DNA of 64,000 nt from Escherichia phage EK8: the sequence record PQ805430.1; one strand, given 5' to 3'. The notes below the pieces were generated by a model. That model was given only the letters and a program-made list of their open reading frames with translations. It was not told the DNA's origin and did not search any database. Within the stretch, counting starts at the first letter, position 1, and each line of letters begins with the position of its first letter. Made by a program: the position numbers and the translations under genes. Below, one piece after another: positions 23,721 through 42,597 of this stretch.

Positions 23721-23964
23721 CTATTGCCATGTTTATCGTTGATTACAGGATCTGGAATCCTGCGCGTCTCAACCCTAGTGGGTCAGTCGCCGATTTCACT
23801 TTTACGACCAGAGGATCGTCTGTATGAACTACATCTGATACATGGCGGTACAGATGCAGCAACGATAAGATAAACCAGATTAGCATCAGGTATCCTCATC
23901 GTAAGGTGAATCACACTATGTAATTCACATTGGATTATATAACCATAATACAATGTAAACTAAG

Positions 23965-38054: not shown

Positions 38055-38501
38055 TTAAATGCTACAGGCACCGCTTTCACACTTGTTGTTCTCAGCAAAC
38101 TCAGCCAGTGCAGCTTTGGTCTGAATTTCTTCAAACAGACGCTGTTTCAGGCGATAACCTTCCACCAGCCAGATCTTCTCAATGGCGTTTTCACGGGCAA
38201 CATCGCAGCCAATGGAGAAGTTAAAGTTCTCCGGGCTGGCGCAGGCAGAATGACCAATCACGGTGAAGCCGTTTTCCAGAGTCAGTACGCAGATGGTCAC
38301 CAGCTTATGGGACTCCAGCGTTTCCTGGGTGGTATCCGGGGAATCACTGTTCTGGTTTGCACCGGAGATACCTTCGGCAGCGGTGAAGAAGACTTCGGAT
38401 TTAATCAGGGACTTGATGTAATCCGGGGTAAGACGCGGAGCTTTATCGGCACCAGCAGCAACAATTTTCTGTTCGAGATCAGACATTGGGTTTCTCTTCA
38501 T
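38055..38501 (-). CDS. hypothetical protein (island gene)
   Basis: 148-aa ORF on reverse strand inside late module; alternative start 38486. Confidence 0.45.
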   Translation of the reverse strand: MKRNPMSDLEQKIVAAGADKAPRLTPDYIKSLIKSEVFFTAAEGISGANQNSDSPDTTQETLESHKLVTICVLTLENGFTVIGHSACASPENFNFSIGCDVARENAIEKIWLVEGYRLKQRLFEEIQTKAALAEFAENNKCESGACSI

Positions 38502-38596
38502 AGAGTGGTTTCATGGAATAGCCGAACATGACTGCATTGTCATACTCGACACTGTTGGCAAATACCAGGTACTTCTTGCCACGGCGATCCGTGACT

Positions 38597-38782
38597 TCAT
38601 AAGCATAAGGTATCGGCATAATTTGTACCTTTTCTTACCCGTGAGAGTATACGTCTGCACATGGATTTAGTGATCGGGGAGCTATGCTCAAAGAACATTA
38701 GCTTATTACACATTGTTACCACAGCGAGACAGAATACTCCCTGCTCATCTGGTTTAGTCCGGTAATAACGTTTAATTTTCAT
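38597..38782 (-). CDS. hypothetical small protein (61 aa)
   Basis: start moved to internal ATG 38782 (AAGGA RBS) because the longer track ORF runs through a terminator hairpin. Confidence 0.35.
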   Translation of the reverse strand: MKIKRYYRTKPDEQGVFCLAVVTMCNKLMFFEHSSPITKSMCRRILSRVRKGTNYADTLCL

Positions 38783-38795
38783 AGGTATCCTTAAT

Positions 38796-38820
38796 GGAAA
38801 AAGCCCCTCCAAAGAGGGGC
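38796..38820 (-). terminator. rho-independent terminator (minus strand)
   Basis: GCCCCTC-CAAA-GAGGGGC hairpin with A-run on plus side. Confidence 0.55.
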
Positions 38821-38920
38821 TATTCCAGGCTTGCAGGTGCATAGGCGCTTTTATATTCCCTATGCGGATAACCTTGTCGGGTATTTCCAACCATTACGCA
38901 CCAGGCGTAACGACGGGAAC

Positions 38921-39166
38921 TTATAAGCCAGCCTTGATAACTTCCAACTGGCTTTTCATCATCACCCAGAATACGGCTGGTATCTTCTCGTAACCGAGGT
39001 TTATAAACATGTCACGTATCTGAATGTTATGAATACGTTTGGCTATAAGCAGACTACAACATCTGAGCTTATCGTCAACGGGTTCGTTATACTTTTTTGC
39101 CATAGCAATACAGAGATCTACCGTATCCACGGCATCAAGAAACTCATCAATAGGATCGGGGAACAT
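38921..39166 (-). CDS. hypothetical protein
   Basis: 81-aa ORF upstream of tRNA pair. Confidence 0.45.
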   Translation of the reverse strand: MFPDPIDEFLDAVDTVDLCIAMAKKYNEPVDDKLRCCSLLIAKRIHNIQIRDMFINLGYEKIPAVFWVMMKSQLEVIKAGL

Positions 39167-39198
39167 GATTGTTACTCTGGTTTAGGGAGGGTATGAAT

Positions 39199-39274
39199 TG
39201 GATGGGGTATCTGGATTCGAACCAGAGAATGCCGATATCAAAGACCGGTGCCGTAACCACTTGGCTATACCCCA
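39199..39274 (-). tRNA. tRNA-Gln (anticodon UUG)
   Basis: hand-folded cloverleaf: acceptor TGGGGTA/TACCCCA, anticodon loop CTTTGAT, T-arm CTGGTTCGAATCCAG, encoded CCA; close to E. coli tRNA-Gln as recalled. Confidence 0.8.
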
Positions 39275-39279
39275 GAAGG

Positions 39280-39355
39280 TGGCGATGGGATGGAGATTCG
39301 AACTCCAATGTCGCGGATTAACAGTCCGGTGCTTTACCGAGTTAGCTATCCCATC
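39280..39355 (-). tRNA. tRNA-Asn (anticodon GUU)
   Basis: hand-folded: acceptor GATGGGA/TCCCATC, anticodon loop CTGTTAA, T-arm TGGAGTTCGAATCTCCA, discriminator G and encoded CCA; 5-nt spacer to tRNA-Gln. Confidence 0.8.
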
Positions 39356-39464
39356 TTATTAATTAAGACACTCTGTTACCTGCCGATCCATGTGGCTGCA
39401 TGGAATGATAACACACTGAGATTAGGGTATGAGCCTGTTCAATGTTGAGTGTCCTAATTAATAA
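39356..39464. repeat. 18-bp inverted repeat (17/18) enclosing a 73-nt spacer, abutting tRNA-Asn
   Basis: TTATTAATTAAGACACTC (39356-39373) vs complement GAGTGTCCTAATTAATAA (39447-39464). Confidence 0.5.
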
Positions 39465-39745
39465 GCCCCCTGTAAAGCCGGGGGGGCAACTCCGAGTTCG
39501 GTAATCTGGTTCTGGTTCCAGAGCACTCCAGGTATTAAGCCTTTGTGCAGGGACGGGTCACTGCCCGTATTATCAAATCGTATTCCCAAAGTAGAACATG
39601 GTTCTTAGTCGCTGGCGTCACCGGTGCTTCTAAGCATCAACACACTCGTAAGTATGTTCAGGTTTAAAAGCTCCCCCATCGCTGAGGGAGAAAATTGATA
39701 ATGCAGGTGGTGTAAGTTAAGTATTACCGCACCCGCAGCCAGATA

Positions 39746-40294
39746 TCAAGCCTGGTTTGGAAGAAGTTGAGAAAAATCTGGTTCGGTGAAAGTCACCATG
39801 TTTTTCAGGAACTTCCCTTCCGGGTAGAATTTACCGTTCAGTTTGATATCACGCTTAACCTTAATGCACATAGTCGGGTAGTTACCGTGCAGATACAGGT
39901 CGTCAGGCTGGAAGCCCAGATCATAGTAATAAGCCAGGGCTTTAATCTTGTCGCCTTCGCTGCTAATGAACTTAGACATGTTAGATTCATGCACCAGGTC
40001 ATAGCAGGAGTTACCATCGAAACCAGCCACATGAGCTACTCCGTCGTTAACGGTGGTCAGGTCACCCTGTGCATCCAGGATACCGGGCATATCGATACTG
40101 GTTTCATCCGTATCGCCATTCAGATCCCAGACTACCTTCATACCAGGGTGTGCAGCTTCGACCATTTCGATAGCTTCCTCTAAACAAAGCATTGCCTGTT
40201 TACGGATAGCCTTAACGTTAGGGTTGTTCAGATCGCCTTTCGCGTTACCAAATGCTAAATTAAGTGCAGTAACTTTTTCGAAAGTAGTTTTCAT
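39746..40294 (-). CDS. possible MazG/HisE-like nucleotide pyrophosphohydrolase
   Basis: 182 aa; helical Glu-rich LCLEEAIEMVEA resembles EExxE metal-binding motif. Confidence 0.4.
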   Translation of the reverse strand: MKTTFEKVTALNLAFGNAKGDLNNPNVKAIRKQAMLCLEEAIEMVEAAHPGMKVVWDLNGDTDETSIDMPGILDAQGDLTTVNDGVAHVAGFDGNSCYDLVHESNMSKFISSEGDKIKALAYYYDLGFQPDDLYLHGNYPTMCIKVKRDIKLNGKFYPEGKFLKNMVTFTEPDFSQLLPNQA

Positions 40295-40359
40295 GAAAGG
40301 TTTCCTTTCTCTTTAAATTGACAATAATGGGTGAAATTATTCACCAGAGCAGAGGACAT

Positions 40360-42597
40360 ATGACTGACCTTGCCCCCGATGACGTACAGATTGCTGCTGG
40401 GGTAGAGGTGCCTAAGCTGACCGACTGGTCGCGTGAACCGACGCTTTCCATTTTCAAACAGGACTTGCAGAGTTGCGAATCCTCGCACCAGGCTCAGATG
40501 AGCAAGGTCGAAGAATGGAATGACTATCGGAATGCGACCGGTAAAGCGGCACCGAAAACCACTAAAGGGCAATCCAAAGTTCAGCCTAAACTTATTCGTA
40601 AGCAGGCTGAGTGGCGGTATGCTGCATTATCGGAGCCGTTCTTAGCAAGCCCAGATCTGTTTAAAGTCTCCCCGATTACCTGGGAAGATAAGAAGGGGGC
40701 TGTTCAGAACGAACTCCTGTTGAACATGCAGTTTACTAACAAGATGAACCGTGTTGCTTTTATCGATGAGTACGTTCGTGCTGCTGTCGATGAGGGCACC
40801 GTTGTGCTGCGTACTGGTTGGGACTTCGAAGAGGTTGAAGAAACCGTCGAAGAACCTATTTACCAGGGTATGGTTGATCCTCGCATGAGCGATATCTATC
40901 AGCAGATGCAGCAACTGGAAATGGAAAACCCAGTCCAACTGCTCAGTCTTGACCAATCACTGCAAGACGGATATGCCCAGTTCAAACAGACTGGCTTACC
41001 AATCCGTTTAATTCAAACCGGCGTGCGTATGGTTAAAAAGATGCGCACCGTCAAAAATCAGCCAACTCTGGAAGTATGTCGGTTGGCAAACCTCTATATT
41101 GATCCTTCATGTAATGGTGATATTAAAAAGGCCAACTTTGTAGTTTATGCCTTCGAAACCTCCATCGCGGAATTGAAGGCAGAGGGCCGTTACCGAAACC
41201 TGGAGAAACTCAATGTCTCATCTGAATCGCCTTTATCGGCTGCTAACTTCACCCCGAATGCTGCCCCCGATTTCCAGCCAGCAGGTAAATCCCGTAAGAG
41301 AATTGTTGCTTACGAGTATTGGGGATATTGGGATATTGACGGTAGCGGTCGTCTTACTGCAATTGTCGGCACATGGGTAGGTGATACCCTCATCCGTCTG
41401 GAAGAGAACCCTTTCCCTGACGGTGAACTTCCATTCACTATCGTGCAATACCTGCCGGTGCGTAAGGCCGTATACGGTGAACCCGATGGCGAACTCCTGA
41501 AAGATAACCAGGATATCGCTGGTGCTGTAACCCGTGGGATGATTGACCTGCTCGGCAAATCGGCTAACTCGCAGACTGGCTTCGCCAAGTCTCTGCTCGA
41601 TAGCCTCAACAAGAAACGTTACCAGCAGGGACTCGACTATGAGTTTAACCCTGGGGTATCACCGGAAAATGGTATCTATAGCCACAAGTACCCGGAGATT
41701 CCGGTATCTGCTCAGTACATGCTGAGCCTGATGAATACCGAAGCCGAATCCATGACAGGTGTTAAAGCGTTTGCCAATACCGGTCTGGACGGTGACTCCC
41801 TGGGTGGTACTGCTACGGCAGTCCGTGGGGCACTGGATGCAGCATCCAAACGTGAGATGGGTATCCTCCGTCGTTTATCCACTGGCTTAGTGGAAGTGGC
41901 CCGTAAGGTCATTGCCATGAATGCTGTATGGCTGGACGAGGAAGAGGTAGTCCGTGTTACCGAAGATGAGTTTATCCCGGTACGTCGTGACGATCTGAAA
42001 GGTGAGTTTGACCTCAAGGTCACTATCTCCACCGCAGAAGCCGATGAGCAACAAGCTCAGGATCTGGCATTCATGCTCCAGACTCTGGGTAACAATATCG
42101 ACTTCGGTATGACTCAGATGATCCTCGGTGAGATTGCCCGTCTGCGTAAGATGCCTGATCTGCAACACAAGATCATGTCCTTCCAGCCGCAGCCTGATCC
42201 GATGCAGCAAGCTATCCAGCAAGCTCAGCTTGAACTGCTGCAAGCTCAGATTGAACTTACCCGTGCTCAGGCTCTCGAAGCTGGTACTAAAGGTTCTCTC
42301 AACCAGAGCAAGGTTCCTGTTGAACAGGCTCGTGCTAACCACATTCAATCCAGTGCGGATAAAAACAATCTGGATTTCCTCCAGGAACAGAATGGGGTTA
42401 AACACCAGCAACAACTGGAACTTACCCGGACGAAAACTGATGAGCAAATGGCACTCGCTGAGTTGCAAAGTAACCATCAATCCACGTTGGCTAAGCTCAC
42501 CCATAACTTAAATCTGTTGCAGGAACATGCGAAGGCTGGCTTAAACAGACAGACTCAACGTATGAATAACGCTGGACGAAGCCCAGCAACTGCGTAA
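40360..42597 (+). CDS. portal protein
   Basis: 745 aa from ATG 40360 (GAGG RBS); Gln-rich coiled-coil C-terminus; two genes upstream of major capsid gene as in N4. Confidence 0.6.
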   Translation: MTDLAPDDVQIAAGVEVPKLTDWSREPTLSIFKQDLQSCESSHQAQMSKVEEWNDYRNATGKAAPKTTKGQSKVQPKLIRKQAEWRYAALSEPFLASPDLFKVSPITWEDKKGAVQNELLLNMQFTNKMNRVAFIDEYVRAAVDEGTVVLRTGWDFEEVEETVEEPIYQGMVDPRMSDIYQQMQQLEMENPVQLLSLDQSLQDGYAQFKQTGLPIRLIQTGVRMVKKMRTVKNQPTLEVCRLANLYIDPSCNGDIKKANFVVYAFETSIAELKAEGRYRNLEKLNVSSESPLSAANFTPNAAPDFQPAGKSRKRIVAYEYWGYWDIDGSGRLTAIVGTWVGDTLIRLEENPFPDGELPFTIVQYLPVRKAVYGEPDGELLKDNQDIAGAVTRGMIDLLGKSANSQTGFAKSLLDSLNKKRYQQGLDYEFNPGVSPENGIYSHKYPEIPVSAQYMLSLMNTEAESMTGVKAFANTGLDGDSLGGTATAVRGALDAASKREMGILRRLSTGLVEVARKVIAMNAVWLDEEEVVRVTEDEFIPVRRDDLKGEFDLKVTISTAEADEQQAQDLAFMLQTLGNNIDFGMTQMILGEIARLRKMPDLQHKIMSFQPQPDPMQQAIQQAQLELLQAQIELTRAQALEAGTKGSLNQSKVPVEQARANHIQSSADKNNLDFLQEQNGVKHQQQLELTRTKTDEQMALAELQSNHQSTLAKLTHNLNLLQEHAKAGLNRQTQRMNNAGRSPATA

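Follow-up and report, generated by a model that had tools for sequence, protein, structure and literature searches.

A conserved AU-rich hairpin with a variable apex directly upstream of the tRNA genes of N4-like phages

Described hairpins beside phage tRNA genes

The classical RNase III substrate is a regular RNA helix, about two turns long, lying between the units of one transcript. The enzyme accommodates about 22 bp of double-stranded RNA and introduces staggered cuts; in vivo, the two cuts usually flank a G-C pair that has about 11 positions on either side (PMC6212723). RNase III is reported to participate in the maturation of the phage T4 tRNAs (PMC4810235, citing McClain 1979 and Gurevitz & Apirion 1983). 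In the T4 cluster, an AU-rich inverted repeat of 9 bp (AUUAUUAAC/GUUAAUAAU) directly adjoins +1 of tRNA-Gln, the first tRNA, and small structured RNAs termed species 1 and species 2 (rnaC and rnaD) are encoded on the 3′ side of the cluster. A related arrangement is found in the 16S/23S stems of rRNA operons, also RNase III substrates, in which distant arms enclose a separately folded RNA and the cut releases the enclosed piece (PMC4810235). Described hairpins of the N4-like phages include promoters: those of the N4 virion RNA polymerase (vRNAP; early), formed on the template strand, combine stems of 5 to 7 bp with 3-nt loops (PMC6027278, PMC4496689), and the LUZ7 middle promoters are GC-rich hairpins with stems of at least 6 bp and loops of 3 to 4 nt (PMC9163698).

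The window analyzed here (the whole stretch of DNA, 64 kb in length) belongs to an N4-like podophage (Schitoviridae) near the Pectobacterium Cbunavirus phages. The region under study is about 87% identical to that of the Cbunavirus phages phiA41, Nepra, and CB1 and also matches Enterobacter phage SABI and the Klebsiella Efbeekayvirus phages. On the minus strand, the order is a MazG-like open reading frame (ORF), about 280 nt of noncoding sequence, the element described here, tRNA-Asn, tRNA-Gln, a DUF7740 ORF, and an N4 gp49-like ORF. The first ORF (39746-40294) is a MazG-like pyrophosphatase according to the annotation of relatives; a Pfam search of this ORF gave no match. The features of the locus are as follows.

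39626-39671, minus strand: second long AU-rich hairpin, beginning in the U-tract of a terminator-like hairpin (39670-39690) behind the upstream ORF
39488-39568, minus strand: conserved structured block of small hairpins with compensatory changes, upstream of the GC hairpin
39465-39487, minus strand: GC-rich terminator-like hairpin (GCCCCCCC GGCUUUACA GGGGGC), adjoining the 5′ arm without a linker in every relative
39447-39464, minus strand: 5′ arm of the basal stem (RNA UUAUUAAUUAGGACACUC), directly 3′ of the GC hairpin
39413-39445, minus strand: hairpin H1 (RNA ACAUUGA AC AGG CUCAUAC CCU AAUC UCAGUGU), with a 7-nt loop at 39427-39433
39375-39412, minus strand: hairpin H2, holding a CCAUG/CAUGG stem (39387-39392/39399-39404)
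39356-39373, minus strand: 3′ arm of the basal stem (RNA GAGUGUCUUAAUUAAUAA); the next base, 39355, is +1 of tRNA-Asn
39280-39355, minus strand: tRNA-Asn (GUU), called by ARAGORN and Rfam, the first tRNA downstream of the element
39199-39274, minus strand: tRNA-Gln (UUG), called by ARAGORN and Rfam, the second of the pair

The element shares with the T4 tRNA precursor and with phage RNase III hairpins a long, mostly regular helix between functional units of one transcript, and with the T4 repeat its end at the first base of the first tRNA. It has no sequence similarity to the T4 repeat, which is much shorter and is missing from the minimum-free-energy fold (a fold containing the T4 stem lies within 1 kcal/mol of the optimum). 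In addition, the apex in the window bears a conserved three-way-junction module, and cleavage of the stem would here be an extrapolation from the described cases. Compared with the rRNA operon stems, the phage element encloses 0 to 73 nt and no rRNA; in some relatives, it encloses nothing. Like rnaC and rnaD, it would be a small structured RNA beside phage tRNA genes on the same strand; unlike them, it lies on the 5′ side and lacks a tRNA-like 3′ end, and neither sequence similarity nor a shared Rfam family was detected. The N4 and LUZ7 promoters offer the parallel of an intergenic, hairpin-forming inverted repeat in the same phage family, but the stem in the window has 18 bp, is AU rich, and holds 73 nt at its apex, and selection on it acts on the nontemplate (RNA) strand. 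Finally, YrlA, a bacterial Y-RNA-like molecule with a long terminal stem and a tRNA-like module, resembles the element in that its paired 5′ and 3′ ends form a long stem bearing a branched apical domain; the element differs in having no Rfam YrlA match and no mimic of a T-arm or D-arm.

The phage N4 counterpart of the locus is a 1.5-kb gap without annotation that separates gp47 from gp48 (L043 7100-8650; EF056009, approximately 32.1 to 33.6 kb), the site of N4's own four tRNAs (Asn, Ser, Thr, and Pro). The N4 cluster contains three elements bracketed by inverted repeats with 13- to 27-nt arms (L043 7703-7796, 7934-8046, and 8134-8217), one of which includes a T-arm-like sequence (GGUUCGAAUCC). 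One long element of this kind is present inside the tRNA cluster of Salmonella phage As2. The N4 and As2 elements gave no Rfam match. In these sequences, long elements bracketed by inverted repeats recur in the tRNA clusters of Schitoviridae.

Structure, strand, and conservation of the element

On the plus strand, positions 39356 to 39373 read TTATTAATTAAGACACTC and positions 39447 to 39464 read GAGTGTCCTAATTAATAA. The two arms are complementary at 17 of 18 positions, and the sole mismatch (A39366/C39454) becomes a U-G wobble in the minus-strand RNA. This agrees with the earlier note on this DNA, which had reported an 18-nt inverted repeat around 73 nt with one G-U-compatible mismatch. When C39355/G39465 is counted, the repeat extends to 19 nt with 95% complementarity, and the arms lie 73 nt apart. 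A whole-window inverted-repeat scan identified this pair as the top-quality inverted repeat of the 64 kb, and a search of the window with the arm sequence (up to three mismatches allowed) returned two sites, both of them the arms themselves, against a chance expectation of 0.03. The opening 10 nt of the 5′ arm consist exclusively of A and U, so that the arm could also serve as the U-rich tail of the GC hairpin. Two further details of the earlier note hold as well: the inner CCATG..CATGG stem is real (tccatg at 39387-39392 and catgga at 39399-39404, at the tip of H2), and the repeat lies immediately 5′ of tRNA-Asn on the minus strand.

A folding check, which the earlier note had proposed, predicted a stable three-way junction for the minus-strand RNA (−37.9 kcal/mol; z = −5.7), and none of 200 shuffled sequences equaled it. 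The plus-strand fold is weaker (−31.7 kcal/mol; z = −3.4). Sequences of this site were gathered from phages in GenBank, from IMG/VR, and from contigs of metagenomes, and a covariance model built from 14 sequences recovered 19 distinct full-length members from phages of Pectobacterium, Klebsiella, and Enterobacter. In the 19-member alignment, standard pairs occupy 95.2% of the cells, compared to 34 to 40% when the partners are slid by one to three columns; 12 of the 40 pairs show changes on both sides, and none of 500 shuffles matched the observed pairing or covariation score. RNAalifold, applied to a plain MAFFT alignment, independently recovered the basal stem, H1, and the base of H2, which matters because the covariance-model alignment leans toward the model's own structure.

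One-sided changes in the basal stem and H1 yielded 42 G-U or U-G cells versus 2 A-C (nonpair) cells. The 42 G-U cells would be A-C mismatches on the opposite strand, which indicates that selection acts on the tRNA-sense strand. The sequence of H1 is near invariant across all 19 homologs. The sequence of H2 drifts, and compensatory changes preserve its pairing: where the window has CCAUG/CAUGG, Klebsiella phages have CCGUG/CACGG, the SABI group has CAACCU/AGGUUG, and phiA41 has CCAG/CUGG. Taken as comparative evidence, these patterns point to a transcribed RNA element of the N4-like phage clade, read on the minus (tRNA-sense) strand. A small structured RNA on the minus strand had been one option of the earlier note, and it is backed by the covariation in the 19 homologs and by the strand-specific G-U pattern.

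In every member, a GC-rich hairpin (GCCCC..GGGGC) is followed without a linker by a long AU-rich hairpin, and in all members but one, +1 of tRNA-Asn directly follows the last base of the AU hairpin. The basal stem measures 16 to 27 bp across members; its bottom 10 to 13 bp are purely A-U and G-U pairs, and G-C pairs are confined to the upper third, near the apex. The apex itself takes four forms.

No apex: hairpin of 37 to 38 nt with 16 to 17 bp (Halo_KS_7, CB4, Tribble, and Kc283)
One unrelated hairpin as apex (41-nt insert): 77 nt (contig L026)
Near-perfect 27-bp hairpin: 82 nt (Horatius)
Three-way junction like that of the window: 105 to 109 nt (phiA41 group, SABI group, and FBKp27 group)

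Since the same arms surround absent or differing apices, the inverted repeat is the constant feature and the 73-nt spacer an optional apical insertion. Insert-free sites retain both arms, which therefore do not form the termini of a mobile insert, and the bare hairpins and unrelated inserts of close relatives mark the apical module as dispensable. The conserved part is therefore the inverted repeat itself rather than the spacer. The element is also linked to the upstream GC hairpin at least as closely as to the tRNA. Both points are absent from the earlier note.

The GC hairpin (39465-39487) is terminator-like by eye and was not called in a consensus terminator scan; a scan for sigma-70 promoters and terminators gave no call within or adjoining the element. 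The block at 39488-39568 always accompanies the GC hairpin and the AU stem. It contains the motifs …GGGCAGUGACCCG…GCACAAAGG…CUGGAGUGCUCUGGAACCAGAACCAGAUUACCGAACUCGGAGU, its compensatory changes occur across Pectobacterium, Klebsiella, and Enterobacter phages, and its indel lengths are not multiples of three. The records of relatives place conflicting "hypothetical protein" genes over it. The block is present in a single copy in the window and has no Rfam match; it is apparently noncoding and, judging by its pattern of change, a candidate for a new phage noncoding RNA. Farther upstream, the second AU hairpin (39626-39671), in a module at a distance of about 200 nt from the element, is kept in all relatives, with compensatory changes. 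As it follows the GC hairpin at 39670-39690, the layout of a GC hairpin plus an AU hairpin occurs twice in about 230 nt. A window-wide scan for more AU-rich hairpins gave noisy output and no further clear module of this type. That scan included an isolated 18-pair AU-rich hairpin at 23921-23962 (minus strand; UAGUUUACAUUGUAUUAUGGUUAUAUAAUCCAAUGUGAAUUA), which has no GC hairpin before it and is unrelated to the module.

In two relatives, a "promoter" is annotated over the AT-rich arm on the strand opposite the tRNAs (FBKp27, L006 1304-1336; Halo_KS_7, L007 1233-1264). This annotation is probably a software-prediction artifact of the AT-rich palindrome.

Several identities were rejected for the element. 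The AU stem is not GC rich and has no U-tract after it, which excludes an intrinsic terminator. An N4-type hairpin promoter was discarded on account of the 18-bp stem, the 73-nt apex, and the G-U pattern on the nontemplate (RNA) strand, and a repeated promoter motif was discarded since the arm and the conserved upstream motifs are unique in the window. YrlA or another Y RNA was dismissed for lack of an RF02553 match in the Rfam scan, and there was no GC-skew signal of a replication origin.

The tRNA genes downstream of the element are less constant. In phiA41 (L001 1800-1882), CB1, CB3, and Nepra, they are replaced by a dead chimera of the 5′ part of tRNA-Asn and the anticodon arm and 3′ part of tRNA-Gln. 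ARAGORN found no tRNA gene in this chimera, and phages of the phiA41/CB1 type have been described as having "no tRNA genes" (PMC6027278). The upstream element is intact in this group and shows compensatory changes of its own. In contig L033 (1433-1624), an ORF of 63 amino acids sits exactly between the AU stem and tRNA-Asn; its hydrophobic sequence suggests a membrane protein. The retention of the element in relatives without a functional tRNA and in L033 implies that tRNA maturation cannot be its sole role.

Further observations concern the tRNA cluster itself. The tRNA-Asn of Horatius (L004 1582-1656) has the anticodon ATT rather than GTT according to both ARAGORN and the GenBank record; A34 is unusual for tRNA-Asn. 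The gaps between tRNAs hold multihairpin elements of about 70 to 110 nt in CB4 (L002 1872-1993), Kc283 (L029 1578-1702), Tribble (L008 939-1062), FBKp27 (L006 715-787), and SABI (L003 2055-2144). These have a 7- to 8-bp closing stem followed by CC or CCA and resemble tRNAs; standard ARAGORN made no tRNA call on them, and the window contains no such element. Two copies of a 9-mer, UCAUACCCU (RNA sense), lie within about 250 nt of each other in the window, one in the H1 loop and 3′ side (39424-39432) and one just past tRNA-Gln, before the DUF7740 ORF (39188-39196). The leader of T4 tRNA-Gln has CUCAUACC and AAUACCCUC; these recurrences may be due to chance.

Candidate functions of the stem and its apex

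A two-turn helix between units, the role of RNase III in T4 tRNA maturation, and the T4 inverted repeat led us to propose an RNase III model. We lean tentatively, short of calling it probable, toward the AU stem being an RNase III-type processing site that would part the upstream RNA from the tRNA precursor and release the apical module. A processing signal had been another option of the earlier note; it is the one that we favor, and we infer that it is plausible. In transcripts reading past the GC hairpin, host RNase III would cut the AU stem. The upstream RNA would retain the GC hairpin as a stable, protective 3′ end, and on the tRNA side the short remaining AU-rich half-stem would melt into a single-stranded 5′ leader to be removed by RNase P. 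The 73-nt two-hairpin apex would be freed as a small RNA of high stability. Either the GC hairpin or H1 may stack coaxially on the stem and extend the helix, as the absence of linkers suggests.

The z-score of the fold, the covariation in 19 homologs, the constant basal stem, the repeated module, and the parallels in T4, N4, and As2 are all consistent with processing. The stem has 18 to 19 bp here and 16 to 27 bp in relatives; with a neighboring helix (H1 or the GC hairpin) stacked coaxially on it, and only then, it would reach about 22 bp here. Several points speak against RNase III. The insert-free hairpins, with 16 to 17 bp, fall below the preferred length of about 22 bp, and their few G-C pairs adjoin the loop, unlike those of the usual in vivo sites (PMC6212723). 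Moreover, the element persists without functional tRNAs (phiA41/CB1 type) and with an ORF in between (L033), a processing role leaves the strict sequence conservation of H1 unexplained, and the GC hairpin received no terminator call in the consensus scan. Neither the element nor any RNase III processing in N4-like phages was described in the literature retrieved by our searches.

The conservation of H1 is the point from which a second reading starts. Its near invariance suggests a partner or ligand of its own, and on the strength of the alignment, H1 probably binds one. It is possible, but on balance unlikely, that the element is mainly a free-standing small RNA in which the long stem merely shields the ends and H1 is the working part, binding a protein or an RNA; its 3′ end would then arise from the RNase P cut at +1 of tRNA-Asn, and in one version H1 would be an anticodon-arm look-alike. 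Such a role would fit the constancy of H1 over phages of three host genera, in contrast to the variable H2 and flanks, the survival of the element after tRNA loss, and the stable small RNAs of unknown role (rnaC and rnaD) that adjoin the T4 tRNA genes. The H1 loop, YUCAUAC closed by AGG/CCU, resembles a CAU anticodon loop, and the H1 search pattern also matches the anticodon arm of the genuine tRNA-Met of phage As2 as well as a second tRNA-like element in the SABI group. This likeness spans only about 13 nt and could be due to chance; we regard the CAU-anticodon-loop form of H1 as a lead suggested by the motif, not as a finding. Against a small RNA stands the dispensability of the module, as close relatives have a bare 37- to 38-nt hairpin or unrelated inserts at the same site. 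Furthermore, a search of the window for the complement of the H1 loop gave matches no better than chance and hence no complementary target there, and the H1 motif had no match in 185,579 bacterial genomes.

Still more doubtful is a passive insulator, in which the stem would not be cleaved. On read-through, the stem would pair the AU-rich tail of the terminator, hide it from RNase E or Hfq, and prevent mispairing between leader and tRNA. The zero linker on both sides of the stem, the all-AU lower stem of every variant, and the same layout at two consecutive terminator-like hairpins would be expected of an insulator, but a stable helix adjoining +1 of the tRNA should impede RNase P rather than aid it, and the 27-bp stems and the conserved apical module are left unexplained.

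A function at the DNA level is improbable. The AT-rich repeat would in this case serve a phage RNA polymerase as its promoter or melting element, or else be a recombination hotspot at which inserts are exchanged. The minimal promoter of N4 RNAPII is AT rich from −7 to +2 (PMC4496689), and in LUZ7 the hairpins of the middle promoters precede the transcription start by about 15 bp (PMC9163698). The element itself comes right after a terminator-like hairpin, at a place where one would look for a promoter, and its apex is polymorphic among close relatives. However, N4 hairpin promoters form on the template strand, which here would bear the A-C mismatches (42 cells versus 2), and a 73-nt spacer disfavors cruciform extrusion. 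Unlike a promoter motif, neither the arm nor the upstream block recurs in the 64 kb, and with a transcription start within the repeat, the covariation of H1 and H2 would have no explanation.

Equally improbable, in our estimation, is a composite of processing and mimicry, in which the AU stem would be a conserved "socket" for small-RNA modules exchanged among phages and freed by host RNase III and RNase P. The module of the window would be a trans-acting RNA, and its H1 (loop CUCAUAC on AGG/CCU) would mimic a CAU anticodon arm and could act as a decoy for a host enzyme or toxin directed against tRNA-Met or tRNA-fMet.

The tRNA-sized spacer (73 nt), its place inside a tRNA cluster, and the inverted termini could bring to mind a tRNA gene in decay or a miniature transposable element with inverted repeats at its ends. 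This reading is highly improbable and already largely refuted, given that H1 and H2 are under structural selection and that the tRNA searches, the single copy, and the sites of relatives oppose it. ARAGORN found 0 genes on the element in six modes (standard, mitochondrial, relaxed, and tmRNA among them), in line with the earlier remark that the spacer is not a canonical tRNA. The earlier note had also raised a degenerate tRNA remnant and suggested an Rfam scan: with Rfam 15 and E ≤ 10, positions 38500 to 40500 gave nothing overlapping 39356-39464 on either strand, and the tRNA model matched only the two real tRNAs. The remnant does not survive these results, nor relatives whose arms hold no insert or an unrelated one. 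The arm is confined to a single locus in the 64 kb and the insert-free relatives keep both arms, on which grounds a miniature inverted-repeat transposable element was rejected.

Significance for N4-like phages

The element is a previously undescribed processing or structural hairpin of a phage tRNA transcription unit; hairpins of this kind are familiar, and its lineage-specific apical module is unusual. N4-like phages of Klebsiella, Enterobacter, and Pectobacterium are under development for therapy and biocontrol. Their conserved noncoding region at this locus is unannotated or misannotated, and several GenBank records assign to it a "promoter" or "hypothetical protein" genes that differ from record to record. 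It holds at least three conserved RNA structures, namely, two modules of a GC hairpin plus an AU hairpin and the structured block between them. Natural controls for experiments are supplied by the variation of the apex, which is absent, a single hairpin, or a three-way junction. To our knowledge, RNA processing around phage tRNA genes has scarcely been studied after the early work on T4. The conserved structures suggest that this processing is organized in N4-like phages, and if the apical module is a functional small RNA, it would be an addition to the short list of regulatory or decoy RNAs encoded by phages.
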